From positions 31,294 through 95,293 of the forward strand of contig NZ_CAXTBY010000003.1 in assembly GCF_964242245.1 (NCBI RefSeq): a stretch of 64,000 nt of DNA, in the 5' to 3' direction. Both the position numbers and the translations under genes were made by a program. The notes beneath the pieces are model-generated. The model searched no databases, was not told the origin of the DNA, and saw only the letters and a list, made by a program, of their open reading frames with translations. Of the stretch, positions 32,590 to 64,000 are shown piece by piece (the first letter of the stretch is position 1; every line of letters begins with the position of its first letter). Origin of the DNA: an uncultured Methylobacterium sp. GTDB taxonomy: Bacteria; Pseudomonadota; Alphaproteobacteria; Rhizobiales; Beijerinckiaceae.

Positions 32590-32895
32590 TCACCCGCCGA
32601 TGACCCGCACCCGGTGCCACGCGGCGCTGAGACAGCCCTCGTCGCTCCAGGTGTTGTCGGGTGCGGCGGCCTGGGTCTGGCCGGCTGCGTCCCAGGCCCG
32701 CACCGCGAGTTCGTGCTCGCCGCGTGTGAGGTCGCGCTCGATCCGGGCCTGGGCCCAGGTGCGGCCGCCGTCGGCGGAGACGTCGACGCGGGCGACCGCG
32801 CGGTCGCCCGCGATGGCGTAGCCGCGGACCGGCTGCCGGCCCGCCTTCAGTGCGGCGGCGCGCGCGGGCTCGCAGATCGCGCCGTTGAGCGGCAT
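32590..32895 (-). CDS. stand-alone sulfite-oxidase-type Mo-co dimerisation (Ig-like) domain; possibly a gene remnant
   Basis: 101 aa from ATG 32895. VRGYAIAGDRAVARVDVSADGGRTWAQARIE..LAVRAWDAAGQTQ matches the C-terminal dimerisation domain of sulfite-oxidase-family enzymes. No catalytic Mo domain precedes it. Confidence 0.4.
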   Translation of the reverse strand: MPLNGAICEPARAAALKAGRQPVRGYAIAGDRAVARVDVSADGGRTWAQARIERDLTRGEHELAVRAWDAAGQTQAAAPDNTWSDEGCLSAAWHRVRVIGG

Positions 32896-32899
32896 CGCC

Positions 32900-33949
32900 T
32901 CAGCCCCCGATGATCCGCTCGCCGAGCTTCCGATCCACGGTCTGAACCGTACGGTCGATCTCGGCGTCGGGCTCACCGAGCTGATGCGAGATCAGCTTGA
33001 CCAACAGGTCGACCCGCTCGATGAAAGGCGCCCCGTTCGCCACCGCCCGGGCCGCCGACGAGGGTTTGAGGAGGCTCTCCGCAGCCTTGGCGTACTTCTC
33101 GAACGGCACCTGATCCTGTGGATCGGCGCCCAAACGCCGGGCGATGGTGTCGATGTGCTCGTAGATCGCGCGTGAACGTGCCAGATCGCCGTGGACCGCG
33201 TCGCGGATCGACTGCGGCTCGTGCAGCGTGATGCAGCGGTAATTCCCGGTCAGCAGCATCGACCATTTCGCCAGCGGGACGAAGAGCGACTCGAACACCT
33301 TCAGCTTCACCGGGACGTCCTGGCCGTCGAGCCGCACCGCGTCGATGTCCGCCTCCAGTTCCCGGAGCAGCCGGTTGTGCGTCTCGTCCGCGAACGGCGC
33401 CGCCTTGAAGTTCGTCGGCAACCCGACGTGGAGGATGTTCGCCCCTTCGTCCGCCGGGCGGAAGGCCTGCGGATCGGGTGAGCAGAGCGATATCAATCCC
33501 GGCTGAAACCGGTCCCAAACGCCAGCATTGGTGTAGGCATCCTCCAAGTCCATCTCCGCGAGCGCCGGGATTCGTTTGAGATACGGCAGGGGCGGCATGT
33601 TCATGATCGAGAGACACGGCAGCTTCGCCTCGGCGATCTTGATCATCAGGACGCGGATGGTGTGGTTGGTGTATTGCGGCTCCTGCATGGCGAGACCGAC
33701 CAGATCGTAGCGGTTCAGGTCGACGTCTTCGGGCGGCCTCGCGTCCAAGGTTCCAGGCAGATCGCGCGACTGGATCGACCGATGGACCGCTTCGTCGCGC
33801 AACTTGATGCGGACTTCGGTACCTTCACGATTGATGAGGTCTGCGGTCTTCTTGCGACAGACAAGGGTCACGTCGTGACCAGCCATCAGCAGCTTCGTCG
33901 CGAGCAAAGAGCCATATGAGGCTCCCAGGATCAGAATTTTGCGTGGCAT
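32900..33949 (-). CDS. ketopantoate-reductase (ApbA/PanE)-family NAD(P)-dependent oxidoreductase
   Basis: ATG 33949 with GAGAGGGAAG upstream. N-terminal Rossmann motif MPRKILILGASYGSLLATKLLMAGHDVTLV. The 5' part is AT-shifted. Confidence 0.65.
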   Translation of the reverse strand: MPRKILILGASYGSLLATKLLMAGHDVTLVCRKKTADLINREGTEVRIKLRDEAVHRSIQSRDLPGTLDARPPEDVDLNRYDLVGLAMQEPQYTNHTIRVLMIKIAEAKLPCLSIMNMPPLPYLKRIPALAEMDLEDAYTNAGVWDRFQPGLISLCSPDPQAFRPADEGANILHVGLPTNFKAAPFADETHNRLLRELEADIDAVRLDGQDVPVKLKVFESLFVPLAKWSMLLTGNYRCITLHEPQSIRDAVHGDLARSRAIYEHIDTIARRLGADPQDQVPFEKYAKAAESLLKPSSAARAVANGAPFIERVDLLVKLISHQLGEPDAEIDRTVQTVDRKLGERIIGG

Positions 33950-34235
33950 GCTTCCCTCTCGGTGATTATGTCGCTGATTTCTTGGAGCGCTGATACAAGT
34001 CGGTGTTGAATTTCTCCGATACGTTCGGATAGCAAATAACGAATCGGACAAGATTTTGCACTATGCGGCAATTCTTCTAAAAACGGAGTGTGTTTGTGCC
34101 TATCTCTAGGATCCGCAGCGAATGGAGATATTGCTAAGGCTTCGGTTTCATGACTTACAGCCGTCTTCGTGCCGTCGCGGGCGGCAGTGAAGCAGAGAAC
34201 ACTAGGCAAGCCAACAGTTTGGTTCGGTTCATACG

Positions 34236-34655
34236 CTAACGGAGCCCTTCCCGCGCCCTGAACGCCTTCCGCGCCTCCTGGACATCGTCGTAGTAGGTCT
34301 CCGCCCAGGTCCGGACGCCGCAGAGCGCCGCGCTCAGGCTCTCGCCGAGTCCGGTCAGGCGGTAATCGACGTGGGGTGGGATCACCGGGTGGACGGTCCG
34401 CATGACCAAGCCGTCGCATTCCATCTGACGCACGGTCTTGGTGAGCATCTCCTGGCTGATGCCGCCCACCACCTTGCCGAGCTGGGTGAAGCGCAGCGCG
34501 CCTTGCTGCTGCAACGCTTCCAGGATCAGCATCGTCCACTTGTCGGCCGCCTGTCCGATCACGTCCTGGACCAGGGCCTCGATCGCGGGATCGACCGCGC
34601 GCGGCACCGGGTCCGCGTGCCGCCTGTCGATCGCCGCTGCGCGCTTCATGATCAC
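34236..34655 (-). CDS. HxlR-family winged-helix transcriptional regulator
   Basis: DKWTMLILEALQQQGALRFTQLGKVVGGISQEMLTKTVRQMECDGLVMRTVHPVIPPHVDYRLT. Confidence 0.85.
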   Translation of the reverse strand: MIMKRAAAIDRRHADPVPRAVDPAIEALVQDVIGQAADKWTMLILEALQQQGALRFTQLGKVVGGISQEMLTKTVRQMECDGLVMRTVHPVIPPHVDYRLTGLGESLSAALCGVRTWAETYYDDVQEARKAFRAREGLR

Positions 34656-34664
34656 TCTCCGTCA

Positions 34665-34691
34665 GGTGCCTATAACACTTCATGGTGCCTA
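34665..34691 (-). promoter_or_regulatory. direct repeat GGTGCCTA x2 immediately upstream of hxlR (candidate operator)
   Basis: GGTGCCTA occurs at 34665-34672 and 34684-34691, 10-36 nt upstream of the hxlR start codon. The function is a guess. Confidence 0.2.
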
Positions 34692-34812
34692 CTTACCGAA
34701 TTGCAGGCAATCTCACACGCAGGTGGTCATATCGCGCGCGGAAGGTTGTACCGGACATTGTCCGGCCCGGTGGAACGCCGATCAAAGCCGTTGATCAATT
34801 TCGGGAAATTCG

Positions 34813-34880
34813 GTTGGAGTGGCAGGATCTGAACCTGCGACCCTCACGTCCCGAACGCCGGGGCGTACCGCCTGCGCCCT
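34813..34880 (-). other. tRNA 3'-half-like fragment (variable loop, T-arm, 3' acceptor strand); not a functional tRNA gene
   Basis: The minus strand reads ..GAGGGTC-GCAGG-TTCAGAT-CCTGC-CACTCCA-ACC, i.e. a canonical T-stem/T-loop (GGTTCAGATCC). No complementary 5' acceptor strand (TGGAGTG) or D-arm was found upstream. Confidence 0.45.
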
Positions 34881-34899
34881 CGCGATCGCTCAGGAATTC

Positions 34900-35023
34900 G
34901 TGCCGGCCGCCCGCTCGCGATCAGGCCGCCATCGGGATAGGCGAGCGCGGCAGTGATGGCGAGCCGCAGCGGGGTGGTTTCGGTAACCGCCGACCGGTCC
35001 GCGATGCGTGGCCTACGCGCCAT
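34900..35023 (-). pseudogene. truncated small island-associated DNA-binding protein
   Basis: ATG 35023: MARRPRIADRSAVTETTPLRLAITAALAYPDGGLIASG. This resembles (from memory) small proteins next to integrases in Rhizobiales (..AFPDGSMTASGLRREA..). Similarity ends where the tRNA-like fragment starts. Confidence 0.3.
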
Positions 35024-35050
35024 CGACGGCTCCGAATGCGCGATCCGTGA

Positions 35051-35766
35051 TTGCAAACCTGTTACTTCCCGCGCTTCTCCTGCGCCGCGATCCGGGCCAG
35101 CATGACCGAGCAGTGCGCGCAGAACTGCGCGCCGAGCCGGAGAGCGATCGTCGCCGCGCACGCGCTGGGCAGCCCGTCCCTGGCGCTCTGCTACGCCGTC
35201 CAGTTCGAGACGGCGCTCCGGCAGTGGGACGCCGCCGGGCAGTGGTATCCGCTTGCCGGTCCGGCGATCTGCCCGGTGGTCGACGGCTCGTCCAAGTGGG
35301 CGGGGCTCGAATGGCGCCACATCGGCCAAGACCTGCTGCTTGCGCGACCTGCCGTCCGCGACCTGCCGTCGAAGACGCGCGGGTCGACCAGCGCCGAGAT
35401 CCTGATCGACCTGTCCCTCTGCCCGATGGGGCTCGACGAAGTCGTGCAGATGCCGCCCGAGGCGCGCTCCGCGCTCATCGTGAACGAGCACACCGGGTTG
35501 CCCGACACCGACATGCAGTTCCGGCGCGCCTTGCGCCAAGTGCGGGCCGCGGCCGGCCGGCCGCGCGGGCTGTGGAGCCGGGACGTGCGCGCCCCGGCCA
35601 TCACCGAAGGGCGCCGCGGCGGGCCGTCAACGACGACGCGGCGAAGGTCGCCGGGCACATCAACAGCCGGATCACGGCTGAGGTCTACGACCGGCAGCGC
35701 CTGGAGGCCCGGCGGCGCTTCGCCACCGCGCGCCTCGATCGGTGCGGCGGCGCCGAGCCCGCCTGA
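35051..35766 (+). pseudogene. tyrosine integrase remnant (N-terminally truncated and frameshifted)
   Basis: Catalytic-domain-like LALCYAVQFETALRQWDAAGQW..WAGLEWRHI..SKTRG..LIVNEHTGLP..FRRALRQVRAAAG..RDVRAPAITEG in the frame of ORF 35051. The C-terminal DDAAKVAGHINSRITAEVYDRQRLEARRRF continues in the frame of ORF 35008. The frame switch is near 35620-35640. Confidence 0.6.
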
Positions 35767-35952
35767 ACGCTCCGGGAGCGTACCGAGGAAGGACCTCGGA
35801 ACGCGCGGCGCAAGCTCCTGCGTTGCCTATGGAAAAAGAACGGCCTGTTAACGAAGACTTAACGAAGATTGCCCGCGGCGCGGCGCGGCGTGATAGTGGG
35901 GCGTTCGCGTTGCGTAGGGCCCGGCGGGCTCGTGAGAGCGAGAGTTTCAGCC

Positions 35953-37161
35953 TTGCAATGGTTGCAGTCCGTGTTCGGATCTGACGGCTCTCCGGTCGTG
36001 CAGTACGTCAGCATCTTCGCCGTGATCTTCGCGGTGCTGACCGTGATCGTGCTGGCGGTGCGCCGCCTCGGTGGCGGCGGCCTCGCCCAGGCCGGCCGAG
36101 GCGGTCAGCGCGGGCGCCAGCCGCGACTCGGCATCGTCGACGTGTACGAGCTCGACCGGCAGCGCCAGCTCATCCTGCTGCGGCGCGACAACGTCGAGCA
36201 CCTGCTCCTCGTCGGCGGCCCGAACGACGTGGTGATCGAACGCCACATCCAGCGCGGCCAGCGCGACCCGGGCTTGCGGCCCGAGGCGATGGCCGAGCCC
36301 CGTCCCGACGCGATCCCGGGGGCATCCGACGCCGCGCTTCCCGGCCTGGAGGAGCAGCGGCCCGAGCCGTTCTTCCCGCCGAGCTTCGAGATGCCGGTGG
36401 TGCTGGGGCCGACCGCGCCGGGATCGAGCGCGGCTCCGCCGGTGACGCATCCCCTCGACGCGGCCGCCCTCGACCTCGCCGCCGCGACCGAGCGCGCCGA
36501 CGCGGTCGTGCCCGCTTCCCGTCCGGACCCCGCCGCGCGGCGGCCGCTGCGACGGACCGCGCCGCCGCTGCTCAGCCCGCATCCGGACGTGGCCTCCGAG
36601 CGCGAGCGCCCCGACGCGGCCCCGGCCGACCCGATTCCCGCGCTGCCGCCGGCCGAGCGCCGTGCGATCGACCCCGCGATCCTGGCGGACATGGCTCGCC
36701 AGCTCGAGGAGGCGCTCGCCCGTCCCGCCTCGGCGGTGACCCCGCCCCCCGCGGCGCGCCAAGCTCCCGCGACGGAAAGCCCCGCGGAGCACGCCGCGAC
36801 CGACCCGGTCGCCGACGCCACGGCCTCGACACCGGTCGAACCCGCGCCTCGGGACGGCGAGCCCGACGACGCGCTGTTCGAGGAGCCGCCGCAAGAACCC
36901 GAACCGTTCCTGCCCGATCCGCCCGAGCCGGCCGCTCCCGTGGCCGAGGCGCCTCCGCCCGTGCCGGAGCCTCCCCCTCACGTCGCACCGGCCGCGGATC
37001 CGGTTGCTCAGGCCGAGCCCCCGCGCGCGGAGCCGCCTTCGCAGCCGGAACCGCCGCCGTCAGCGCCTGCCCAGAAATCGTCCGCAAATCCGTTCTCGGT
37101 TGAGGAGATCGAGGCCGAGTTCGCCAGGCTCCTCGGTCGCCCCCTCGACAAGCGGAACTGA
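35953..37161 (+). CDS. FliO/MopB-like membrane protein with long Pro/Ala/Glu-rich tail
   Basis: Probable TTG start at 35953 (MQWLQSVFGSDGSPVVQYVSIFAVIFAVLTVIVLAV), then RLGIVDVYELDRQRQLILLRRDNVEHLLLVGGPNDVVIE, which is FliO-like. About 250 aa of low-complexity tail follow. The family call is from memory. Confidence 0.5.
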   Translation: MQWLQSVFGSDGSPVVQYVSIFAVIFAVLTVIVLAVRRLGGGGLAQAGRGGQRGRQPRLGIVDVYELDRQRQLILLRRDNVEHLLLVGGPNDVVIERHIQRGQRDPGLRPEAMAEPRPDAIPGASDAALPGLEEQRPEPFFPPSFEMPVVLGPTAPGSSAAPPVTHPLDAAALDLAAATERADAVVPASRPDPAARRPLRRTAPPLLSPHPDVASERERPDAAPADPIPALPPAERRAIDPAILADMARQLEEALARPASAVTPPPAARQAPATESPAEHAATDPVADATASTPVEPAPRDGEPDDALFEEPPQEPEPFLPDPPEPAAPVAEAPPPVPEPPPHVAPAADPVAQAEPPRAEPPSQPEPPPSAPAQKSSANPFSVEEIEAEFARLLGRPLDKRN

Positions 37162-51962: not shown

Positions 51963-52102
51963 TGTGCGTCGACCCATAAACCCGGACTGACCCGCCCTTA
52001 GGTCGCTGGGCGAGGCCTCGCAGCCTCTCAGGGTTACCCGGAACGCACCAACCCATAAAGCCGGAATGCGCCTCTGGCTCCCTCGCCATAAAGCCGAACA
52101 GG
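51963..52102. repeat. putative transposon left-end: TGTG terminus plus three direct transposase-binding-site-like repeats
   Basis: TGTGCGTCGACCCATAAACCCGGACTGA (51963-51990). Repeats are GACCCATAAACCCGGA (51971), AACCCATAAAGCCGGA (52050) and TCGCCATAAAGCCGAA (52083), all in the same orientation. Confidence 0.45.
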
Positions 52103-52978: not shown

Positions 52979-55663
52979 TCAGGAGGTCACGGCCCGTCCG
53001 AGCAGCTGAAGCTCATGGAGGGGAAACGGCAGCCGCGTGTCGCCTCCGTACTGGGTGTGGACCTGCCGGAGTCGGTGGGCGGCCATCCTAACGGCTGCGA
53101 GGTCGTCATCCGGCTGGCAGAATACGGCGCAGATCTCGTCCATGGCGGCGAGGCGCCGGGGCTTGTCGTCACGCACCTTGTTGTCGCCGGGCGCGAGGTG
53201 GCGCGAGATCAGGGCGTTCGGGATAAACTTGGACATGGGCTTCGGCTTGCGCTTCAGGCCGTAGGCGGTCCTGGCTCCATCGTCCCAAGCGAACAGCCCG
53301 CCTGGCCAGGCTGTGTCCTCCAGGTGGTAGTAGGTGGGCAGCTTTTCGTCGTCGGAGACGAAGCGGACCATCCGGACGTTGGGCAGGTCGGCCGGCCTGA
53401 AGCTCCGGTTGCCGACCTGGAGGTTGTCGAGGGCGAGGTTGCCGTTCTGAAGCGACTTGATGATCGTCCCGAGGCGATCCCCGTCGAGGAGCACGACGCC
53501 GCCGCCTTTGCTCGCGCCGGCCGCGTCGTCGATCTGCTCCAGAGCCGTGTCGTAGAACATGTGGAATCGGCCGAGGTTCTCCTCGTCGCGGCCGCGGTTG
53601 AAGCGTCCGTATTCCCCGGCGAAGATGGCGAGCGCCGCGAGGCCGTAGGGTTGCCAGTTCGGCTCGCCCTCGTCGGTCGGGACGGCGCATTCCAGGATGC
53701 CTTCCTTCACGCGGGCTGCGAGTGGGAAGGACTGCTTCTCGACCCCATTGCTGGCGTTGCGCTGAATCACCGACAGGGCAGCCGGGGCGTAACGCAGGTC
53801 CTCTTCGTAGGGCGGGAGCACCCCGAGCATGCGCAAGCAGTCGCCGATTGCGGCCTTGTACTTGTCGTCAACGACCCCTTCGTCGTCCCAGAGGACGACC
53901 TGGGGCAGGACACGTTGCCGGGCGAGTTCGCGCCGGGCGAAGGTATAGGGGTCTCCCCTCTGACCCTGCAGGTTCGCGGCCATTTCCAGGATCGTGCACG
54001 CAACGCCCGTGCGCCCGACCCGAATGCCTCTCACCCAGGCGGCCATGCGCCGGGCCGCCTCGACGCCGATCTCGTTTTCGCGAGCTCGGAGCATCTCGCC
54101 GATCTGGCGCTCCGTCCGCCCGGCCCGCTCGGCATCCGTAAGGGCTGCCGGCCGGAGCGCCTCGGCGAGGATCCCGGCCGGGGCCTCCACGATGTTGATG
54201 GTGAGACCATCCTCCCAGGTCATGGTCCCGTCGCGGCGCGCCGGCTCGCCCAGGATCACGGCGAGCTTGTCCCGGACAGTGGCGGGCGTGCCCTCCAAGC
54301 CATGGAGCACGAGGAAATCGAGCTCCTTGCCGTTTCCGAGGACGCCCAGAGTCTTGATCAGGGCGGCGCGACGGGCTTCGAGGACGCCAGCGTTGACCGC
54401 AGCCTCGCTGAAGGGGCTCTCGACCGACATGGTCTTCGAGATGCGCCGCATGGTTGGTGCGCGCTCCAGCAACATGTCGCCGAGCGGGGCATCGAGGGAG
54501 TTGGAAATGTCGAGGCGATCCGGCCACCCGACGCCCGTCCCACCGGCGAGATAGCGGTCGCCGCTGCCGGGGGCGAGCCTCGGCAGCACCCAGAGCCCAT
54601 CGCGGCCGCTAACCATCTGGATGCCGTCGCCGTCCGCGAGGGACCCGGGGGAAACAAGTCGCCTGAGTAGGTCGTAGATGCGATGGTCGCGGTGCGACTC
54701 CCACCGGGCCACTATCCGCCTGTCCTCGCGACGCTGGCGCACCCCCTCCCAGTTCTCGACGAGGGCCTTGAAGGGAAAGGACGTGTGCCGGTAGTCGTCG
54801 AGGCCGCCCGACGCTTTCTCCGAGGGCATGAACAGGTCGAGGGAACGCGCCGGGCTGCCTGTGAGGTCGTAGCCGACGGGGACCGCCCAGTTGCGGATCG
54901 AGGGCCGCGCCAGGATGTGGATGCCCGCTTCCTTGCGCTCCGGGAAGGTCGCGGCCTTGATGGTGACGACCTCGGAATAGTAGGCGTCGCGGCTCGGATG
55001 CTTCTTCGGGGGGAAGGCGACGAGGTCGATGCCCTCGAAGGGCGAGGAATGCGGCGTGCGGGCGACAAGGGTCCGTTCCTCGCCCGACGCGAAGCGGATC
55101 GAGCGCCCGGAGAGGTGGTCGACGGCGTGGGCGACGAGAGCGTCGTAGAGCAGCCGGTTCTCCGGGATCGCGCAGATGCCGTCGTGGGCCTGGAGGCGGG
55201 TGTGCACCTCGATGGAGACCCAGTTCTCGTCGTCGCCCGCGGAACGGGCAACGTCGTCCCGCACCTCGGGGTCCTTGTTCCCGTAGATGGTGCCGAGCCA
55301 TAGGTTGATGGCGGCCACCACACGCCGGCGCAGGTCCCGGTCGCCCGTCCGGTCGCCGACCATGTATAGGGCGAGCCGTATGCCGGCGCCGGGGACGGAC
55401 CGGGCGCGTGGGTCCATGTAGGCGATTTCCGGGACCAGGAAGGCCAGGATCTCGGACAAGCCGGCGAGCACGATATAGGTGGGCTGGTTGGCTCGACCGG
55501 TCCGCTCGACGCACCATTGCAGCAGTGTCGTGTGGGCGTGCTCCGGCAGCATGAAGCGGGTCAAGAGGAGCGCCTCGTCGAGGCCAGTGGTGGTCCACGC
55601 GGCGACGTGTAGCTCGTCGGTCGATCTAGCCAAGGCGAAGCCCCTCTGTGTTGGCGAGCGCAT
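52979..55663 (-). CDS. large pPIWI-RE-like protein (third gene of the nuclease-helicase-PIWI-RE module)
   Basis: About 890 aa. The C-terminus ..RRLAAMDEICAVFCQPDDD..AHRLRQVHTQYGGDTRLPFPLHELQLL, the size and the gene context match my memory of the pPIWI_RE (DUF3962/DUF3893) family. Start is uncertain: ATG 55663, or TTG 55633 with AGAGGGG SD. The track start 55993 overlaps the helicase by 368 nt and is rejected. Confidence 0.55.
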   Translation of the reverse strand: MRSPTQRGFALARSTDELHVAAWTTTGLDEALLLTRFMLPEHAHTTLLQWCVERTGRANQPTYIVLAGLSEILAFLVPEIAYMDPRARSVPGAGIRLALYMVGDRTGDRDLRRRVVAAINLWLGTIYGNKDPEVRDDVARSAGDDENWVSIEVHTRLQAHDGICAIPENRLLYDALVAHAVDHLSGRSIRFASGEERTLVARTPHSSPFEGIDLVAFPPKKHPSRDAYYSEVVTIKAATFPERKEAGIHILARPSIRNWAVPVGYDLTGSPARSLDLFMPSEKASGGLDDYRHTSFPFKALVENWEGVRQRREDRRIVARWESHRDHRIYDLLRRLVSPGSLADGDGIQMVSGRDGLWVLPRLAPGSGDRYLAGGTGVGWPDRLDISNSLDAPLGDMLLERAPTMRRISKTMSVESPFSEAAVNAGVLEARRAALIKTLGVLGNGKELDFLVLHGLEGTPATVRDKLAVILGEPARRDGTMTWEDGLTINIVEAPAGILAEALRPAALTDAERAGRTERQIGEMLRARENEIGVEAARRMAAWVRGIRVGRTGVACTILEMAANLQGQRGDPYTFARRELARQRVLPQVVLWDDEGVVDDKYKAAIGDCLRMLGVLPPYEEDLRYAPAALSVIQRNASNGVEKQSFPLAARVKEGILECAVPTDEGEPNWQPYGLAALAIFAGEYGRFNRGRDEENLGRFHMFYDTALEQIDDAAGASKGGGVVLLDGDRLGTIIKSLQNGNLALDNLQVGNRSFRPADLPNVRMVRFVSDDEKLPTYYHLEDTAWPGGLFAWDDGARTAYGLKRKPKPMSKFIPNALISRHLAPGDNKVRDDKPRRLAAMDEICAVFCQPDDDLAAVRMAAHRLRQVHTQYGGDTRLPFPLHELQLLGRAVTS

Positions 55664-58600
55664 CGTGGAACGGCCGGTACAGCAGGTCCGCCACCTCGTG
55701 CTCCTTGGGATTGATGTTCGGGTCCATGGCCATCTCAAGTTGGCGCAGGATCTGGACCAGTGCGCTCGATTCCGGCGTATCGCTCTTATTGTCTCCATCG
55801 AACGACAAGGGCGCGAACGAGTAGTCGACGAACCCAATCCGCACGGGGGAGCCGCCGCGGATGCCGCGGCCGATGGTCTGCCAGAGCGGGGTGAGCATGT
55901 CCCAGGCGAACTGGGCCTGAAATTCATGTGGCAGGCTGCGGTAGCCGAAACGTCCCGCCTCAAGTCCGTACCTGACGATGTTGCTGGCGGCATGCCTCAC
56001 GCGGCGAGTCCGGCGTGCGAGGTCCTCATCCCCGTCCTCCGGCTTGACGCCCTTGTCGTAGCGTTCCTGCGCGAAGCGGTTCAGGCGACCGATGGTGGGC
56101 CCGAGGTCGTCGGGACGGGGATGGGGCCGGTGCAGAAAGTAGATCGAGGAGATCGCAGCCTTTCCGTCGCCGTTGAGGATGTTGTGCCCGCGGGCGACGA
56201 CCTGCATGGGGGCGACGAGTACCGACCTCTCGGGCTCGCGCCCGAAGCGCTCGATGAGTGAGCGAGGCATGGGTTTAGCCTGGGCGAGGCGGATGTGCTC
56301 GACGGCGGTGCCCGCATCGTCCCGGTCGCGGACGAGACAGTGCACCTTCCAGCCCGCGTAGCCCGCTCCGTCGAGTGCGGCCGAGAGGGCGTCGGCGACA
56401 ATCGCGGCGTCCGCGTAGCTGTTCGTCACCAGGAGGGCCCGCTGGCGGCCGGTGATGTCACCGGGCTCCCAGCGCCGCTCCATCTTGTGCCAGTCGTCTT
56501 CTAACCGATTGCGGCCGTCGCGCCGGGCCGCGAGGCGCTCGGCGATGATTGCAAGGTTGGCCCGACGCTCGTTCTGCGGCCGCCCCGAGACGCGGATCTG
56601 GTGGCCTTCGCCGTCTTTCACATGGACCAGGCCGAAGACGGACCTCTTGATCGCCTTGAGCTCGGCCTCTGGCTGGACCAGCACGCCCCTCACGGGCACC
56701 TGCACGTCGAAGGAGGGGGATGCCGCGTCGATGGGCCGGCCCGACCTCGGGTCCTTACGGCGCACGCTGCCACCGGCCCAGCTCGTCCCTGAGAGCATGA
56801 GGACGTGCGGCCCGGCCTGGCCCTCCGCGGCGAGAAGGTCGTGCAAGTGGGTGAGGAGGTGGCGCCCGACGCCCAGGTGGCTGATGAGGGTGAGCTTGCC
56901 GCCCATGGAGGTGCGCTGCTCGTTTTCGGGCTCGTCGTAGAACAAGCCGAAGGCGGCGCCGGCCGGGTTCGCCGGCAGGAGTGTCCTGTAGTTCTTGATG
57001 AGGCTGTTGGCTTGGCCGAGCAGATGGCCGTCGTCGATCTTGAAGTCGCGGGCAACGGCCGACTGGGTCTTGATTAGCCAGTTGTAGTGCGAGAGCGCCA
57101 GATCGGTGACGACGGCGAGCAAGAGCGCGAGCGCGTTGGCCTGAGCGTCAAGGACCAGCTTCTTCGGCCCCTCCTCGCAAACAGCGTTGAAGATCTCCAA
57201 CTCGTGGTCGAGGGCGTCCTGCACTAGCGGCACGACCGCGTCGTAGTAGTCGGCGACGAGAATCTGACGGGCAATCTCCTGCAGGTGAAGGGCGGCAGTC
57301 CCGTAAGCCGGGTCCGAGAAGGAGGGGGCGTCGTCCTCGGTCTCCTCCTCGCCGACGGACGCCGCCCGGGAATAACCCTTGATGGAGCCGGCTACCCGGA
57401 CAACGTCGAGGAAGCCCTCCGCGAAGGCGGGGTTGTCGAAGGTCATGCTCTCGCGCGCGGTCCCGAGGACGAGGCTGCGGCGGCGCCAGAGGTCGTAGAG
57501 GATGCTGCCCGCCGTGAACGGGGTGTTCTTGAAGAAGGGACCAAGGATTTCGCGCTCGTTCTGCAGGATCGCGTAGATCGTCCCGATCAACCGGAAGAAC
57601 GTGAAAAAATTCGATTGCCACTTGGCGTTTACGGGCTTGCGGAACTGGACGCCCGAGCGCTCCCGCAGGGCCTCAGACGAGCGCAGGCCGATGCTGGGCG
57701 CGTAGACGTTCCGCTCGTCGCCCATGATCGGCGAGCGAGGCGCGAAGACGTCGTCGAGGGCCTTCTGGACGCCGTCTACCTCGTCGACGATCACGAGGTC
57801 ATACTCGTACTGCAGGAGCTCCGGGATGCTGAGGTGGTGCTCCGTCGTCCACTTGTCCGGGGTGATGTGGACAAAGGCCGGCGGGGTCATGATGAGGACC
57901 TGGGCGTCGACCGCATCGCGCTGCTGCTGCTGGGCCGGGCAGACGGTCCAGAGCGGGCACGAGCGAGCCTTCACATTGTCGCCGACGTCGTCGGGGTTGG
58001 TGCCCTCCTCGTCATCCTCGGTAGGTGGCGTCTGGTAGATTCGGTGGCACTGCTTCTCCGGGAAGGTGGGGAAGCGGCGGCCCTCGGGCTCGCCCTTGAC
58101 CACCTCGGGGTCGGGCTGGGCGCCGTCGAGGGGGCAGGCGGTGCTGAAGCCGTCAGCGAGGTCACCCAGGGCCGACAGCTTCCAGCCCGTGGCGTCGAGG
58201 CTGCGCTGCCAGTGGATCGACTGAAGGTGGGCCTCGCGGTTGCGCAGGCTGGAGAGCACCGTTGCCTTGATCCCATGCCGGCGCAGGCGCGAGGCGAAGG
58301 TGGCGCCCTGGATGGTGTCGCTGACGAGGATGGCGATGCGCTTGCCGCTGCCGCCCAGGGTTAGGGCCATGAGCAGCGCCCAGACGAGGGTGGACTTCCC
58401 CGAGGAGAGCATGCCGACGACGTGGGTGGCGCCGTCCAGGTTGAAGGTACCGTCCTCGTAGAACCCGTCGAGCCCCTTGGGCTGGAGATTGGCGATGCGT
58501 GAGGCAAGACGGAGCGGGGGAAGGCTCTCGGCGGGCCAGTCGTCCAGGGTCTCGCGAGTATCGACCTTGAGGGCGACTTCCCGCATCTGCTCGAAGGTGA

Positions 58601-59186
58601 TTTGGATAGGCGGGTTGGAGGCGCGCGGCCGAAGGGCGTGCTCACGGCGCGCCCGGCGCTCCGCCGGCACTGCAGGGATCGTGTAGGCGAGTGTGGTACG
58701 CGTCCTATCGAGGACGACGGTGGCGTCGCCGGGCAAGGCCACGTTGAGCTCACGGCGTGTCCACGGGACGGTGGCGTCCAGCCAGGTGTCGAGGAGCTCG
58801 CGCATCACGGCCGGCGCAGCCCGCCGCGGTGACACGGCGGTCCCGCGGACCTCGAAGCAGCGCAGGGCCTCAGGCGTACGGCCGTACTGGAGGATGGCGT
58901 CTACCCAGGCCGAGATCGATCCGAAGCGCGAGCAGAGGTGCCGGACGGTCATGAGGGAGCGTATGGCCCCCGGGCCGCCTGCCCCATCGAGGAGTTTGGG
59001 ATAACCCATCATGAGGAACGGCACCGACCGATGTGGCTCGTCCGGCAGGTAGCGGTGGAGGTAGGCGAGGCAGAGCTCAGTCTGGGCCAGGGTGCGTACG
59101 CGCTCGCCATCGAGGTCCCGCGTGTCCGGATCGATGGCCGAGAGGGCATCGCGGTAGGCGGCGAGGTATTCGCGGTCGGACCTCAT
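55626..59186 (-). CDS. SF2 DinG/XPD-like helicase (1186 aa)
   Basis: ATG 59186 overlaps the upstream TGA (ATGA). Walker A VVGMLSSGKSTL (58389-58415) and DExD box LVIVDEVDG (57774-57785). Four Cys lie between them, and a motif-VI-like MQVVARGHNI follows. Confidence 0.75.
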   Translation of the reverse strand: MRSDREYLAAYRDALSAIDPDTRDLDGERVRTLAQTELCLAYLHRYLPDEPHRSVPFLMMGYPKLLDGAGGPGAIRSLMTVRHLCSRFGSISAWVDAILQYGRTPEALRCFEVRGTAVSPRRAAPAVMRELLDTWLDATVPWTRRELNVALPGDATVVLDRTRTTLAYTIPAVPAERRARREHALRPRASNPPIQITFEQMREVALKVDTRETLDDWPAESLPPLRLASRIANLQPKGLDGFYEDGTFNLDGATHVVGMLSSGKSTLVWALLMALTLGGSGKRIAILVSDTIQGATFASRLRRHGIKATVLSSLRNREAHLQSIHWQRSLDATGWKLSALGDLADGFSTACPLDGAQPDPEVVKGEPEGRRFPTFPEKQCHRIYQTPPTEDDEEGTNPDDVGDNVKARSCPLWTVCPAQQQQRDAVDAQVLIMTPPAFVHITPDKWTTEHHLSIPELLQYEYDLVIVDEVDGVQKALDDVFAPRSPIMGDERNVYAPSIGLRSSEALRERSGVQFRKPVNAKWQSNFFTFFRLIGTIYAILQNEREILGPFFKNTPFTAGSILYDLWRRRSLVLGTARESMTFDNPAFAEGFLDVVRVAGSIKGYSRAASVGEEETEDDAPSFSDPAYGTAALHLQEIARQILVADYYDAVVPLVQDALDHELEIFNAVCEEGPKKLVLDAQANALALLLAVVTDLALSHYNWLIKTQSAVARDFKIDDGHLLGQANSLIKNYRTLLPANPAGAAFGLFYDEPENEQRTSMGGKLTLISHLGVGRHLLTHLHDLLAAEGQAGPHVLMLSGTSWAGGSVRRKDPRSGRPIDAASPSFDVQVPVRGVLVQPEAELKAIKRSVFGLVHVKDGEGHQIRVSGRPQNERRANLAIIAERLAARRDGRNRLEDDWHKMERRWEPGDITGRQRALLVTNSYADAAIVADALSAALDGAGYAGWKVHCLVRDRDDAGTAVEHIRLAQAKPMPRSLIERFGREPERSVLVAPMQVVARGHNILNGDGKAAISSIYFLHRPHPRPDDLGPTIGRLNRFAQERYDKGVKPEDGDEDLARRTRRVRHAASNIVRYGLEAGRFGYRSLPHEFQAQFAWDMLTPLWQTIGRGIRGGSPVRIGFVDYSFAPLSFDGDNKSDTPESSALVQILRQLEMAMDPNINPKEHEVADLLYRPFHDALANTEGLRLG

Positions 59187-60475
59187 CGCGCGACGTCCAG
59201 GTCGGAGAGGAGGGCCGAGATGGTGCGCAAGGCAACTGGCGTCTTGGCGTGGGCGCGGCGGACCGCCTCGAAGCGGCGTTCGTACCCGCGAGCGATCTCG
59301 GGCATGTAGTCGGGCACGACCAGGAAGCATTCGTGGTCGGCGGCGTATTCCTTGAAGCCCTCGAAGCGAGCCGCGAGGTTCTCGGGCGAGAGATGTTCCT
59401 TGACGTCGACCGCTATGCGTCGGCCCGCGGGGGAAACGGCCGCGATGTCGACGCGGTCAAGCCGCGGCCAGAGCTCGACGGTCCAGCGCGCCTTCCGAAG
59501 CCGCTCCGCGAGCAGGAGCTCGGTCTTGCCCGGCAGGCACCAGTAGAGCCGGAAGGCGCGGCGTAGTTGCATGGTGCCGTGCCGCCATTTGACGCCCGCG
59601 GAATCGCCTGATCTCGCGCGCCGGATGGCCTCCGGATCGCGGCTCTCGGTGTGGAAGCCGATACCCTGCCGCCGCAGCACGGTGCCGCTCACGACGCAGG
59701 TGGGCAGGAAGCCGTCGAGCGTGAGGGACTCGGGAACGCGCTGGTAGAAGGCCTCAACGATCTCGTCGACGCGCTCGACCGTGGCGAGGATTGGGTCGGT
59801 GAGTATGGTCGTGGTCCAGCTCCCCAGGACAGGATGCTCGACAACGGCGCGGCGGAAGGCGGCGTAGACCTTCTGGCCATCGCGGCGGTCGACGCAGACG
59901 GACCGTAGCAAGCCGAAGCCGGCCCGCTCGATCAGCTCCGTCTCGGGATCTCTGCCCGGCATGGCCAACTCGACGCAGGCGGGGGTAATCTCGCCATCCT
60001 CGATGAGCTTGGCGGCCGTGAACTCGCCGTCGGGATCCCAATTGAGATCCGTTACCCAGTCGAAGAGCGGTTGCTCGGCGACCGCGGCGAGGGCACGCAA
60101 GTCGGTGGGCCAGAGGGCGCCCGGCTCCATGATGTTGCGGGCCGCGGCTAGATCGAAGGACCGCTGTAGCACGGGCGGGTAGCCATCCTTGAGCCAACCC
60201 TGGGCGTCGACCTGTTGCTGGACCTCCATGAGTCCGCGAGCGAACAGTGTGACCATGTCGCGGTCGCTGCGAACGGGCTTAGCGTCCCCGGCGAGCTCGT
60301 CGAGCCGGGCGCGGATGTCAGGGGCGACCGCATCCTCGTCCTCGAAGTAGCGGTAGAGGGTGGCTCGCCCAATTCCGAGGGCCTGTGCAGCCGCCGTTTT
60401 CCAACGCCGCCCGTACCCAAGCTTATGGCCGAACAGAGCTTCGCAATCCTGATGAAACTTGCTCGCGGCGGACAT
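59183..60475 (-). CDS. HTH-containing PD-(D/E)xK (restriction-endonuclease-fold) protein
   Basis: ATG 60475 preceded by GGAGGG. N-terminal HTH AAAQALGIGRATLYRYF. C-terminal nuclease motif WTVELW..LDRVDIAAV..RIAVDVKEH (E..D..DxK). Confidence 0.7.
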   Translation of the reverse strand: MSAASKFHQDCEALFGHKLGYGRRWKTAAAQALGIGRATLYRYFEDEDAVAPDIRARLDELAGDAKPVRSDRDMVTLFARGLMEVQQQVDAQGWLKDGYPPVLQRSFDLAAARNIMEPGALWPTDLRALAAVAEQPLFDWVTDLNWDPDGEFTAAKLIEDGEITPACVELAMPGRDPETELIERAGFGLLRSVCVDRRDGQKVYAAFRRAVVEHPVLGSWTTTILTDPILATVERVDEIVEAFYQRVPESLTLDGFLPTCVVSGTVLRRQGIGFHTESRDPEAIRRARSGDSAGVKWRHGTMQLRRAFRLYWCLPGKTELLLAERLRKARWTVELWPRLDRVDIAAVSPAGRRIAVDVKEHLSPENLAARFEGFKEYAADHECFLVVPDYMPEIARGYERRFEAVRRAHAKTPVALRTISALLSDLDVAR

Positions 60476-60495
60476 AGCACCCTCCAACGAGACAG

Positions 60496-60524
60496 ACGAT
60501 ACACGTGTGTCTCATCTGTATCAA
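60496..60524 (-). promoter_or_regulatory. sigma70-like promoter with embedded palindrome upstream of the three-gene operon
   Basis: The minus strand reads TTGATA-N17-TATCGT (-35 at 60519-60524, -10 at 60496-60501). The spacer contains the perfect palindrome ACACGTGT. GAGACA/TGTCTC arms flank the -10. Confidence 0.4.
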
Positions 60525-60585: not shown

Positions 60586-62500
60586 TCACGCTTGGGCTGA
60601 TAATCGACCATGCCTCCTACATGCCGCACGCCTACGATGAGCCGCCAGGACAGCTTCCACCCGCGCCCGCTCGTAGAACGTCATCTGGCACCGGTCGCGT
60701 CCGATGGCCGGCTCGACCCCAAACCTGGCAAGCCGCCCCGGCACTGACAGGGCATGGACGCCCAAGCGTGCGGCCACGTCGGGTCCGCGCACGAAACGCG
60801 CCTCGAAAGCATGGACGTCCTCCGTCCTGATCCAGTGCACGCCGGAATGGTTTTCCGCCCGAAGATAACCGAGCTCAATGAGCTGCCGGACGGCCTCCCG
60901 CTTCGTCCCGAGCCGCTCCGCGGCCTCCTTCTTGGTCATGCCGGACGCGTCTGGCATGCGGGCGCGGCTCACGTCGGCGGTCAGCACCATCAGGCGCCGC
61001 AGACCGACCGCTTGCGCGTCCACCCCGACGACGGGCACCCTCCCCTCCCTGACCCAGCGCAAGACCTCCACCAAGCTTGCCCCGGCCGCGGTCGCGGCCC
61101 TCATGACCGGGCGGGCATCGTCGGGCCGGGCGCCGGTCTCGCGGGCTGGCTCGAAGCCGGCCACGAAGGCCGCCACGGCCGTCCGCTCCACCGTGTATTC
61201 CCCTCGCGCCCTTCGCTCCGGGTCGAGGGAGGGGGGAAACAGGTCCGAGGCGATGATCTCGGCGGCGGCCGAGCGATGGACGCCCAGCAGCAGGGCGGCG
61301 CCCCCGCAATCGACGCGGTCGTCAAGGCGGGCCTGGATCTGGCGGGCGACCGCGTCGCTCAAGCGTACCGGGCGTCCCTGCTGCGAGCCCTCGGTCGAGT
61401 GGCCCATTCCGCGTACCAGCCGCCGAAACCGACCGTAGGTCAGGCCGGCGAGGTTGCTTCCGGCCTCCAGATTAGTTCCGCCCGGGCGCATCTCGCGCCC
61501 GAACACGACGGAGCCCGTCTTGAGGACGACGTTGCGTTCGGCGTGGTCTGCGGCGGTCGCGGCGACGATTGCCAGGCGGCCCTTCCTGGCCGCGGACGTC
61601 ATCCACGTCCCGAAGGCGCCATAGGCCAGGCCGGCGCCCCAATGGTTCGCGCCCCTTTTGCCGATCGCCATCCGCTCGGGCTGATGGGCGACAAGCCGAT
61701 CCAGGAAGGCGTCAAGGGACGGGCGGCCCCCCCGATGCGATGCCGAAACCCTCACGCACGATGGACGCGGCTTCGTCACGCCGCCATGCCTCGGCGTAGG
61801 TCGCCGTCGGATGAAGGGCGTGCGCACCCAGCCGTTCGCAGAGCGTCAGTGCCTCGGCGAGCGGTAAGCCGGCCAGCAGGCCGTCCTCCGCCACCGGGCC
61901 ATGGCCGACGCGTCCGAGAAGCCAGCGGTCGACGACAAGCGCACCCTCTTCGACGGGTTCGCAGGTCGGGCGGGTCAGGCGTGCCCGGCAGTGGCATCGC
62001 GTAAGATCGAGCTTGTCGTAATGCAGCATGCGCCGGCATCCCGGGCAGCGATGCTCAAGGGGGCGGGCATGACGCACGCAGTGCGCCATCGCCGTCAGAT
62101 CCCAGACCGTCCGGTGATAGGCCGCCTCGGACAGGCAATCGGGACACCAGCGCCGCATGAGGCGGTGGAGGGCGCCATTGGGCAAGTCGTGACCCAGCAA
62201 CTGGGTCTGTCGCTCTGCTCCGTCGATGGGAGAGGCATGGGCGAGTACGACGGGGTCGACCCCGCACGCCTCCGCGATGGCGGCAAGGTGCCGACCCTGC
62301 CTGACGTCCCCTGCCCCGCTGACCCCGAGGAAGCGCCAGAGGCGCCGGGGCGTTCTCAGGCCGGCCTCATGACCGCGACGAAGCACCAACCCGAGAGCAG
62401 GCTCGTCCGCATAGGCGCCGAGGCGGTGGGTGAACCTCCGAGGCATGGCATCGGTCCTCCGTGAATGTCGGGGTGTTCGCGGCTTCGCAGGTCGGGTCAC
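60586..62500 (-). pseudogene. tniQ: TniQ/TnsD-like target-selection protein, split by a frameshift in a G7 run
   Basis: N-terminal TniQ domain (YADEPALGLVLRRGHEAGL; Zn-ribbon RWCPDCL..HCVRH..RCPGCRR) in ORF 61712-62500. It continues as SLDAFLDRLVAHQ.. in ORF 60586-61827. The switch is at the C7 (plus-strand) run 61727-61733. The GTG start overlaps the tniB stop. Confidence 0.7.
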
Positions 62501-63622
62501 CTCTTCGAGAAGTCGGGGGTGTCATTCCGCTTCTTGCCCTTGATGCGCGTTTTTCTCGATGGATCGGGCGCCGGGGCGTTCATGATCCCCGGCTCGTGGT
62601 TCTTCTCGCGCCAGGGATTGGGGCGGGCGTAGAAATCGTCCGATCCGATCTCCCAGAGGAGTTCGTCGAACGCCTGTTCGAAGAGGTTGGGGGTGATGTT
62701 GGGCTGGCCGAGGTCGAGGGCCTTGAAACCGGCAAGCTGGGTGATGGCGGCGATGCGCGAGATCACCGCGTCGGTGGCGCGGTGGAGGTCGAAGCGGATG
62801 GCGTCGCCCGTGAAGGAGGCCTCGGGGAACGGCAGCATGCGGTCGATCTTGTCGAGCGTCTGGCCGAACAGCGCGCGCTCCGCCGGATCGACCCAATCGT
62901 ACGGCCTGAAAGGATGGACGCCCCGCCCGCGCCGGGCGAGCTGACCGTTCCCGACGAACATGGCGTTCATCGTTTGCGTGCCGAAGAAGACCGCGTGGAC
63001 GAAGAACCCGGAGCCGTCCCGCTTCCACTCGGGGGTGGCATCCTCCTCGTTGAGAAGCCCCTTGAGCCAGTCGGCGGCCGCATAGGCGAACTTGTCGGTC
63101 CGGTGGTCCGTGAGGTGCTGGAATTCGTCGATCAGGATGATCCGAACCCGTTGCTCCATGAGCTTCGCCAGGATCCGGCGCGTCTTCTCGCCCTTGTCGC
63201 CGTACTCGGGATCCTCGTCGGCCAGGGCTCTCAGCATGGCGGTGGCCATGCTCGCGATGGTGACCTCGGGTGGTGTCGCGACGCGCAGGATCGGGCGCCA
63301 GTCGCCCCAGGGTGCCTGGAGGGCATAACCCTCAATCCGGTAGCCCGACGCCTCCGCCTCGCGGTCGAGCACCTGGCGTCGGATCTTGCGCAGCAACTGG
63401 CTCTTGCCGACGCCAGGCCTTCCCGGGATGGAGATGTGGATAACCCTCCAGTGCCGACTTGGTCATTCTCTCGAAGAAGTCGAACTGCCCCACCAGGGCC
63501 AATGTCCGCGGGTGCCATGCCTTGAGGCGCATGATGCGGCGCTCGCGCTCGCGCTCGTCCTTCGGCAGGAGGTCGCCGGCGGCGTCGAGGTGAGCGGTAC
63601 GCGGCCCCGTCTGCTCAGTCAT
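62497..63622 (-). pseudogene. tniB: TniB/TnsC-like AAA+ ATPase, frameshifted before the Walker A motif
   Basis: The N-terminus MTEQTG..FFERMTKSALEG is in ORF 63332-63622. Walker A VIHISIPGRPGVGKSQLL and Walker B RVRIILIDEFQHL are in the frame of ORF 62497-63396. The switch is near 63440-63450. Confidence 0.7.
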
Positions 63623-64000
63623 AATCGGCCTCCATGTCGAGGGGGGCGGAGACCGGCGTGGCGGGCGCCGGCACGGGCTCGGAGGGCGTGCGTTCGTTGG
63701 CCGGCTTCGGCTGCTTCCTCGGCGCGACGCGCGGCTTGGCCTGGCGCGGCGCCTGACCCAGACCTGGCTCCGGTGCCGGATCGGGATCAGGCGTGGTCAC
63801 AGGATCAGAGAGCGCCGCGACCTTGGTTGCCCCAGGTGCCTCCAGGATCGCCTCGGGCTTGGCGTCAACCTCGCCGTCATCGTCCTCGTCGTCGAAAACG
63901 CCCTCCATCCGGAAGCTGGCGGGTGGCCGTGCGGCTGCGGGATCGATCCCAAGAGCGAAGAGACGACCGAGCCGCTTGAGGGTCTTGCGACGCCCGTTGC
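63615..64000 (-). CDS. C-terminal end of an ORF entering from the right window edge (presumed TniA/TnsB-type transposase)
   Basis: The frame is open from position 64000 down to TGA 63615-63617. It has an acidic/Pro-rich tail, and its stop overlaps the tniB ATG by 8 nt. Identity is inferred only from its position upstream of tniB. Confidence 0.35.
   Translation of the reverse strand, partial: NGRRKTLKRLGRLFALGIDPAAARPPASFRMEGVFDDEDDDGEVDAKPEAILEAPGATKVAALSDPVTTPDPDPAPEPGLGQAPRQAKPRVAPRKQPKPANERTPSEPVPAPATPVSAPLDMEADYD

Follow-up and report, generated by a model that had tools for sequence, protein, structure and literature searches.

Prokaryotic PIWI-RE (pPIWI-RE) triads were defined by Burroughs, Iyer and Aravind in 2013 as three genes in strict order with overlapping termini: first that of a restriction-endonuclease-type (REase) protein, occasionally with an N-terminal helix-turn-helix (HTH), then that of a helicase of the DinG type and last that of the Argonaute-like PIWI-RE protein (PMC3702460). 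Catalytic residues survive in only a subset of PIWI-RE family members, and the role proposed at the time was RNA-dependent restriction with DNA-RNA hybrids as its target (PMC3702460). R-loops are among the structures on which DinG helicases act (cited in PMC3702460). In 2022 a member from a Pseudomonas stutzeri triad, PsPIWI-RE, was characterised. It accepts guides of either nucleic acid, cutting DNA when guided by RNA and RNA when guided by DNA; it acts only on RNA/DNA hybrids, and D525 and D610 are essential (PMC10991935). Deletion of piwi-re rendered P. stutzeri more sensitive to ciprofloxacin and altered cell division (PMC10991935; reviewed in PMC11555693). Other authors equate pAgo type III of PADLOC with PIWI-RE systems (PMC11333966). 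Here we analyse 64,000 nucleotides of contig NZ_CAXTBY010000003.1 (the window) in which a first-pass annotation, made from the sequence, had suspected a pPIWI-RE island at 52979-60524. That the locus is a PIWI-RE triad is practically certain. The annotation knew of no published biochemical characterisation of such systems, a view which the work on PsPIWI-RE has made out of date (PMC10991935).

The triads are the one named class of prokaryotic Argonaute (pAgo) systems for which our search of the literature turned up neither an in vivo test of defence nor a structure nor a mechanism for the module as a whole; a profile search of PDB sequences likewise gave no relative. We found neither a phage or plasmid challenge nor a study of the three triad proteins together, and the sole experimental paper on the family deals with one protein in isolation (PMC10991935). 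The triad of the window is one further member of a candidate defence system that was predicted in 2013 and has models in both Pfam and PADLOC, and thus no new system. What is added here, a probably dead PIWI active site, a suggested HTH-operator circuit and the apparent carriage on a transposon, consists of details which can all be tested.

Three long, co-oriented open reading frames (ORFs) with overlapping termini span 52979-60487 on the minus strand, in a window with a G+C content of about 70%. Their G+C content by codon position is coding-like, 0.83-0.88 at the third (GC3) and 0.46-0.48 at the second position (GC2); GC3 is slightly below that of the neighbouring host genes (0.92-0.95). All six pPIWI-RE domains of Pfam and three PADLOC models match the three proteins, which bears out the suspected identity. 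The domains are distributed largely as anticipated, with PF13111 and PF13032 on gene 3, pPIWI_RE_Z on the helicase and pPIWI_RE_REase on gene 1; only pPIWI_RE_Y, expected on the helicase, resides on gene 1. No NCBIfam model matches any of the three triad proteins.

Gene 1 starts with the ATG at 60475, with GGAGGG ahead of it at 60485-60480, and is joined to gene 2 by the 4-nt ATGA overlap at 59183-59186 that had been noted earlier. For the second junction the annotation had left a range of 8-38 nt at 55626-55663, and both corresponding starts of gene 3 exist: an ATG at 55663 with a 38-nt overlap and no ribosome-binding site, and a TTG at 55633 with an 8-nt overlap (55626-55633) and a ribosome-binding site, GAGGGG, at 55646-55641. 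Because a 4-nt followed by an 8-nt overlap is the commonest junction arrangement in homologous loci, the shorter form is preferred; the entry for this very protein in a public protein collection also has 884 aa. Most likely, then, gene 3 starts at the TTG and its product has 884 aa instead of the "about 890 aa" first given; the C-terminal sequence quoted for it, ...MDEICAVF...LPFPLHELQLL, is present. The operon is compact (7.6 kb), self-contained and equipped with a native promoter, and it is apparently a complete and functional PIWI-RE system. The genes on either side (those for an HTH_17 protein, TniQ and TniB, and an orphan ORF and housekeeping genes) contain no methyltransferase domain.

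Gene 3 codes for the Argonaute-like component. A family-specific domain X, which replaces the PAZ or APAZ region, is followed by MID and PIWI/RNase H domains. The Pfam models pPIWI_RE_X (2.7e-11; 43.7 bits against a cut-off of 30.5), MID_pPIWI_RE (2.6e-8) and RNaseH_pPIWI_RE (6.4e-25) all score above their curated cut-offs, and the PADLOC model PprPIWI matches at 8e-63. An AlphaFold2 (AF2) model, made with 36 homologues, reached a predicted local distance difference test score (pLDDT) of 87.9 and a predicted template modelling score of 0.87. In a Foldseek search with this model the 50 best matches in the PDB are all Argonaute or PIWI structures, with TtAgo at the top (E 9e-14), followed by RsAgo, animal PIWIs and human AGO1-3; the comparison with Argonaute on which the annotation had wanted its proposal judged thus came out in its favour. 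Strands are modelled at 616-625, 634-643 and 646-652, with a short one at 658-662, and then a helix at 663-671. This helix after the first beta-meander is a family-specific feature. The R/E signature consists of R757 and E833, positions which are arginine in 87 and glutamate in 89 of 90 full-length family representatives; the same 90 sequences underlie all statistics on catalytic positions.

A different picture emerges at the active site. In TtAgo the fourth catalytic residue, D660, sits in L-P-A-P-L-H-L-A-D. The counterpart in the family is P-x-P-L-H-(L/E)-(A/L)-x, and some members read PLPLHLAD exactly. The window protein has P869-F-P-L-H-E-L-Q876, i.e., a glutamine at the D660-equivalent position, which is mostly arginine in its subfamily; the carboxylate of slicing Argonautes is absent from this position, which the shared motif anchors. 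According to predicted secondary structure the catalytic position in beta1 is Q624 (glutamine, lysine, arginine or asparagine in 74 of the 90 representatives, aspartate in 3), and the end of beta4 is D717 (aspartate, histidine or glutamate across the family). A combination of three carboxylates (D/D/D) occurs in 0/90, and the whole subfamily reads Q-(D/E)-R at the three catalytic positions. With Q876 in the place of D660, the PIWI domain of gene 3 lacks at least the last catalytic carboxylate. Since, in addition, Q624 stands at beta1 and no representative has D/D/D, we propose with moderate confidence that the protein is probably a binder and not a slicer. No Argonaute was retrieved from PDB sequences by profile searches, be it with an alignment of full-length family members or with one of the PIWI domain only (16 diverse members), and the residues equivalent to D478 and D546 are therefore not anchored by sequence.

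Could PIWI-RE nevertheless be an active guide-directed nuclease for which the helicase and the REase protein mainly generate or load guides from invader or R-loop nucleic acids? The precedent is PsPIWI-RE, which also derives from a triad and cleaves by means of D525 and D610 (PMC10991935), and the window protein does keep D717 at the end of beta4. However, the glutamines 876 and 624, the Q-(D/E)-R reading of the whole subfamily and the survival of catalytic residues in just a part of the family (PMC3702460) speak against it, and we regard this as decidedly unlikely.

Gene 2 codes for a helicase with an N-terminal Z domain (Pfam pPIWI_RE_Z, 2.8e-17, above the curated cut-off; PADLOC PprDinG, 1e-133). 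The three motifs listed by the annotation, Walker A GMLSSGKST, the DExD box DEVD and motif VI ARGHN, are all present. Its estimate of about 300 aa ahead of the ATPase core was too large; some 257 residues precede Walker A. Across 42 homologues these motifs do not vary, and neither do the cysteines C351, C380, C410 and C416. The AF2 model (pLDDT 86.1) finds in Foldseek as best match CasDinG from a type IV-A CRISPR complex (8s35_M, 7e-8), then E. coli DinG (6fwr), S. aureus DinG and XPD. The predicted structure and the conserved cysteines fit a DinG/XPD-type iron-sulfur helicase.

The domain order of the gene 1 product is HTH, Y, a putative, degenerate Zn-ribbon and a PD-(D/E)xK nuclease. Pfam pPIWI_RE_REase (1.8e-22) and pPIWI_RE_Y (3e-16) score above the curated cut-offs, PADLOC PprRE at 3e-30; the assignment as an REase-type nuclease is one made by sequence models. 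The HTH motif GIGRATLYRYF was correctly recognised at first sight. The E..D..DxK set was not, insofar as the glutamate of WTVELW (E334) was taken to be catalytic: it is conserved in only 2 of 19 homologues. The catalytic set consists of E319, D340/D343 and D357-x-K359, of which E319, D340, D343 and K359 are invariant in the 19 homologues and position 357 is aspartate in 18 and glutamate in the other. Between Y and REase, where a Zn-ribbon would be expected, the subfamily has C260-x2-S263 ... H275-x2-C278, in which the window protein carries S278, so that at most 2-3 ligands are left.

Directly upstream of gene 1 lies the promoter-like site TTGATA-17-TATCGT, the single sigma70-like site in 10 kb scanned (0.7 expected by chance). 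The claim that the three minus-strand genes stand behind their own promoter is supported by conservation of the layout: the order of -35, boxes and -10 is kept upstream of gene 1 in 17 other loci. The boxes are four copies of GA(G/T)ACA, two direct and two inverted, arranged as GATACA-gat-GAGACA-cacg-TGTATC-gtc-TGTCTC and overlapping both -35 and -10. In 552 kb, made up of the window and 26 related loci and read on both strands, the tandem GA(G/T)ACA-N3-GA(G/T)ACA turns up 16 times, in every case (16/16) upstream of gene 1 and no more than about 55 nt from its start. When the promoters of 18 loci are aligned, the -35 element, two boxes and the -10 element are followed by a third or fourth box, often inverted, and the closest relative (L028) conforms to this layout. 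At its centre the operator reads CACGTG (60503-60508), a perfect palindrome by virtue of which the four boxes form a 34-bp quasi-palindrome, which hints at binding by a dimer of dimers.

The distribution of the boxes follows that of the HTH. Exact GA(G/T)ACA boxes precede gene 1 in 18 of 20 loci in which gene 1 has an HTH; in L029 they are degenerate, and L031 has another repeat. They are absent in all three loci whose gene 1 lacks the N-terminal HTH (L008, L030 and L032). In L031, a distant triad, a different HTH sequence (…WLGISRPTLNRYLAH) is paired with a different repeat, GTTTAC/GTAAAC, and its promoter (locus features at 2600-2711 and 11141-11492) has the same layout of two direct plus two inverted copies as the window. 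The HTH segment GRRWKTAAAxxLGIGRATLYRYF is highly conserved in gene 1 homologues. As the boxes overlap the promoter and occur only where the nuclease carries an N-terminal HTH, this co-occurrence suggests, in the simplest reading, that the HTH of the gene 1 product autorepresses the operon. Expression would then be set by an HTH-operator circuit which is directly assayable. The operator is not mentioned in the two papers on the PIWI-RE family (PMC3702460, PMC10991935).

Table 1. Features of the PIWI-RE locus and its surroundings, with positions in the window
Feature	Position	Strand	Basis
Putative promoter and operator	60489..60524	-	promoter scan, sequence, aligned promoters of 18 loci
Promoter-like site TTGATA-17-TATCGT	60524..60496	-	
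-35 element	60524-60519	-	
-10 element	60501-60496	-	
Box GATACA	60522-60517	-	
Box GAGACA	60513-60508	-	
Box TGTATC	60503-60498	-	
Box TGTCTC	60494-60489	-	
Gene 1, Y-REase nuclease protein with HTH, 430 aa	59183..60475	-	Pfam PF18156 and PF18154, PADLOC PprRE, 19 homologues
Gene 1 HTH, residues 20-47	60335-60418	-	
Gene 1 Y domain, residues 75-217	59825-60253	-	
Gene 1 REase domain, residues 316-424	59204-59530	-	
Gene 2, Z plus DinG/XPD-type superfamily 2 helicase, 1186 aa	55626..59186	-	Pfam PF18155, PADLOC PprDinG, AF2, Foldseek
Gene 2 Z domain, residues 29-184	58635-59102	-	
Gene 2 Walker A, residues 258-266	58389-58415	-	
Gene 2 cysteines C351, C380, C410, C416	57939-58136	-	
Gene 2 DEVD, residues 468-471		-	
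Gene 2 motif VI, residues 998-1002		-	
Gene 3, PIWI-RE protein, most likely 884 aa	52979..55633	-	Pfam PF13111, PF18157 and PF13032, AF2, Foldseek
Gene 3 domain X, residues 26-427	54353-55558	-	
Gene 3 MID domain, residues 475-608	53810-54211	-	
Gene 3 PIWI/RNase H domain, residues 619-882	52988-53779	-	
HTH_17 (excisionase/MerR-like) protein, 413 aa	60586..61827	-	Pfam HTH_17 6e-9
TniQ, 262 aa	61712-62500	-	Pfam TniQ 2.9e-13
TniB-family AAA+ ATPase	62497-63462	-	Pfam TniB 1.8e-8, tblastn to annotated TniB-family genes
Putative transposon end	51963..52101	+	three motif matches, repeat family D1
Repeat copies in putative end	51972-51989, 52051-52068, 52084-52101		
Orphan ORF, 114 aa	52262..52606	-	outside conserved module; without Pfam or PHROG match

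How might the three proteins work together? We put forward the following sequence of steps tentatively, with somewhat less than even confidence. One sigma70-type promoter would transcribe the three genes, and the overlapping stop and start codons would couple their translation. The N-terminal HTH of gene 1 would bind the four boxes over -35 and -10 and keep the operon repressed. PIWI-RE, with its Argonaute fold, conserved MID pocket and incomplete tetrad, would hold a short guide and sense a complementary invader strand without cutting it; going by PsPIWI-RE, which handles RNA/DNA hybrids only, the guide would be RNA directed against DNA. Sensing would recruit or license the iron-sulfur DinG-type helicase, which would unwind or translocate from the hybrid or R-loop, and the PD-(D/E)xK nuclease would then cut the exposed DNA. 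Our results establish who the PIWI-RE and helicase proteins are and how they fold, to which family the nuclease protein belongs, that the motifs are intact, that synteny, coupling and operator are conserved, and that the D660-equivalent position has no carboxylate. Guide type, complex formation, order of events, defence function and outcome (targeted interference versus abortive infection) are what we infer; a protective role against phages or plasmids has contextual support from the PADLOC models, the apparent carriage on a transposon and the defence-type neighbours of other triads.

The outcome could also be a different one, i.e., recognition by PIWI-RE may unleash an indiscriminate degradation of DNA by helicase and nuclease by which the cell is killed or arrested. 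Short and long-B pAgo systems pair catalytically dead Argonautes with effector enzymes, and the characterised long-B, short and SiAgo-like systems are classed as abortive (PMC11333966). A PIWI domain predicted to be inactive, invariant residues in the effector nuclease and a conserved operator which, if repressing, would suit a toxic effector agree with such a scheme. Yet processive, target-linked degradation, as by Cas3 and CasDinG, would more typically involve a helicase as partner than would collateral killing, and the triad has no NADase, membrane or other classical suicide effector. All in all, we consider abortive infection unlikely and adhere to target-linked cleavage as the preferred reading.

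Comparison with other genomes delimits the module. The closest PIWI-RE protein among about 5.8 billion proteins is 61% and the closest helicase 76% identical. A profile search of 1.84 billion cluster representatives at 50% identity returned 504 family members (E <= 1e-3). When genomes were scanned with gene 3 as a single protein, no relative was confirmed; relatives were obtained by an alignment-based scan instead, which led to 26 loci. Most belong to Alphaproteobacteria (Bradyrhizobium, Azospirillum, Magnetospirillum, Pelagibius and diverse Rhodospirillales), others to Oceanimonas and to one metagenome-assembled genome (MAG) each of Bryobacterales and Latescibacterota. In each of the 19 loci whose upstream DNA is long enough, the REase and helicase genes directly precede the PIWI-RE gene, ordered and oriented as in the window, and in most of them the junction overlaps are the same, so that the co-occurrence by which the annotation wanted the triad to be checked is upheld. 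DNA in common with the window locus is confined to 52979-60487. Since nothing outside it is shared with related loci, the conserved module is exactly the triad and its promoter. A second, word-indexed homologue search, this time with the alignment, only gave the 66 proteins again; neither PsPIWI-RE nor another distant named member was among them. Searches of IMG/VR viral contigs and GenBank phages gave no relatives, megablast of the 9-kb locus against plasmids gave no match, and the protein search gave a single one, on a 728-kb replicon of Azospirillum.

The neighbours of other triads vary. L027 has a DEAD/DEAH-box helicase and a site-specific DNA methyltransferase as a restriction-modification-like pair, together with an NYN-domain protein and an IS630 transposase; L028 has a superfamily 1 helicase and a methyltransferase-like gene; an OLD-like nuclease lies beside another triad; L031 is accompanied by McrBC, a PDDEXK/RNase_H_2 protein and a TniQ gene. 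This variety is consistent with an accessory, mobile defence module.

The same data bear on the view that the triad serves chromosome maintenance and not defence, be it completion of replication, resolution of R-loops or tolerance of topoisomerase poisoning. The ciprofloxacin sensitivity and altered cell division of the P. stutzeri deletion strain (PMC10991935; PMC11555693) and the action of DinG helicases on R-loops (cited in PMC3702460) would agree with it. A housekeeping function is, however, hard to reconcile with the patchy distribution over Alpha- and Gammaproteobacteria, Acidobacteria and Latescibacterota, with the apparent location on a transposon in the window, with restriction-modification-like, McrBC and OLD-like genes beside other triads, and with a GC3 below that of flanking host genes. 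Taken together these features fit an accessory, horizontally moving module, and we consider the housekeeping view very improbable.

In L001-L021 PIWI-RE is by a clear margin the least conserved of the three proteins in every locus; in L005, e.g., the partners are 70% and 71% identical to those of the window, PIWI-RE 51%, and in the closest relative the helicase is 76% and PIWI-RE 61% identical. This divergence could reflect a faster evolution of the sensing component. In the metagenomic locus L029 the PIWI-RE gene is split into three ORFs (7791-10334; 248, 324 and 245 aa) beside an intact nuclease and helicase, with Fic and Mob_Pre genes as plasmid-like neighbours; either the Argonaute component has decayed or the assembly is in error. 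Partial PIWI-RE matches without partner genes occur in L023-L026 and probably represent fragments of genes or contamination from binning; one of them, L026, covers 64 residues with 64% identity on a contig of a Methanosarcinaceae MAG.

The annotation had placed the triad on a mobile element, and its surroundings support this. On the right, on the strand of the triad, lie adjacent, co-oriented genes for TniB and TniQ and a 413-aa HTH_17 protein (Table 1), with a PHROG match "DNA transposition protein" in these transposition genes. On the left, up to 51796, are genes for a manganese catalase, two pyridoxal-phosphate enzymes of Cys/Met metabolism, an ABC1 kinase, an HWE histidine kinase and a response regulator. 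The putative end begins 167 bp past the stop (51796) of the flanking Cys/Met-metabolism gene with the terminus 5'-TGTGCGTCG (5'-TGT), followed by three direct copies of ACCCATAAA(C/G)CCGGA; three exact matches compare with 0.42 expected in the whole window. The left end of Tn7 has spaced repeats, and the sequence at this position looks like a Tn7-type left end. With tniB-tniQ on one side of the operon and a Tn7-like end on the other, the triad looks like the cargo of a Tn7/Tn5053-type element which sits beside housekeeping genes of a high-GC, probably alphaproteobacterial, chromosome. An actinobacterial origin, to which the 70% G+C might point, was rejected in view of the relatives and of the HWE-type histidine kinase in the flank, which indicate Alphaproteobacteria. 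The transposase gene (TniA/TnsB) and the second end are to be expected beyond position 64000; the latter, as the matching right end, should be inverted, with copies of CCGG(G/C)TTTATGGGT and a terminal ...ACA. A partial ORF at 63615-63998 has no Pfam match.

This arrangement invites the thought that the triad serves the transposon, i.e., that a nuclease-dead, guide-loaded PIWI-RE chooses insertion sites together with TniQ, in an Argonaute-type parallel to CRISPR-associated transposons. Apart from the triad, only two small genes lie between tniQ and the putative end, the PIWI domain is predicted to be inactive, and the distant triad of L031 also has a neighbouring TniQ gene, being the only such other locus. 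On the other hand, homologues of this element's TniB, TniQ and HTH_17 genes are found in 0 of 28 related loci examined, triads elsewhere reside in ordinary defence-island contexts, and the catalytic residues of the REase are invariant; an active nuclease would destroy the target site. Such a role appears exceedingly improbable, and that of a defence cargo is retained.

Several points weigh against the reading of a non-cutting, autoregulated defence module on a transposon. The D478- and D546-equivalent positions of the PIWI domain were mapped from predicted secondary structure alone. PsPIWI-RE is an active nuclease and D717 is kept, and the window protein may possess an unconventional active site. 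Binding of the operator by the HTH is deduced from co-occurrence. We found no experiment in which this locus or another complete triad shows defence, and the sole in vivo phenotype published for the family is the ciprofloxacin sensitivity of a deletion mutant (PMC10991935). The transposase gene and the other transposon end lie outside the window. Taking identity and mechanism as a whole, we still think it rather probable that a PIWI-RE triad operating along the lines sketched above is the best explanation of the locus.

Other features of the window stand apart from the triad. The TniQ and HTH_17 ORFs overlap by 116 nt (61712-61827) in different frames, and the GC3 signal shifts frame at about 61750-61950; a single TnsD-like gene with a frameshift could account for this, as could two genes that overlap. 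The HTH_17 protein belongs either to the transposon or to its cargo. The orphan 114-aa ORF has a GC3 of 0.76 and an internal terminator-like hairpin at 52422-52395. This ORF and the HTH_17 protein, TniQ and TniB were considered as additional components of the system and dismissed, none of them being conserved beside other triads. The 64-kb window has no tRNA gene and no Rfam family anywhere, hence no integrase-type attachment site or known RNA is tied to the locus. Stretches of lower G+C content at 14001-16000 (0.63) and 32001-36000 (0.66-0.68), against a background of 0.70-0.75, are possibly further acquired DNA unrelated to the triad.

Compared with the pPIWI-RE islands as described, the locus has the same components: a PIWI-RE protein composed of X, MID and PIWI, a DinG helicase with Z domain and Cys-rich insert, and a Y-REase protein, in the family occasionally with an N-terminal HTH. 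Strict gene order, overlapping termini and the lack of an adjacent methyltransferase are also shared. It differs in the degenerate ligands at the Zn-ribbon position (C260, S263, H275, S278) and in being carried, as it appears, by a Tn7-like element. In contrast to PsPIWI-RE, an active nuclease, the window protein has Q624, D717 and Q876. With Tn7/Tn5053-type elements that carry defence cargo the locus shares adjacent, co-oriented tniB and tniQ and a putative end with 5'-TGT and three spaced repeats, like the left end of Tn7; what differs is the 262-aa TniQ ORF, which runs into the following ORF in a different frame and may be frameshifted. An apparently intact 7.6-kb operon which moves as apparent transposon cargo is usable experimentally, yet hundreds of comparable loci exist, as the 504 representatives at 50% identity demonstrate.

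With inactive long-B and short pAgos the triad has in common that a protein of Argonaute fold whose DEDX tetrad is incomplete shares an operon with an effector of the nuclease type, and presumably also a logic in which guide-dependent sensing leads to effector activation. PIWI-RE proteins nevertheless form a separate clade with their own domain X, the extra helix after the beta-meander and the R/E pair, and their partners are a DinG helicase and an REase instead of SIR2, TIR, Mrr or other fused effectors. The proposed mechanism further resembles that of type IV-A CRISPR-Cas systems with CasDinG and type I systems with Cas3, in which a non-cutting, guide-bearing module is combined with a helicase acting from a hybrid or R-loop. 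This is a functional analogy and not membership: the triad has no CRISPR array and no Cas proteins, recognition would be accomplished by an Argonaute-fold protein, and gene 2, with its family-specific Z domain, is about 1.7-2 times longer than the matched DinG and CasDinG chains (594-699 residues). If the PIWI-RE protein of this large subfamily is a non-cutting sensor, which is probably the case, the DinG helicase and the REase would be the effectors and together would correspond to a split Cas3.

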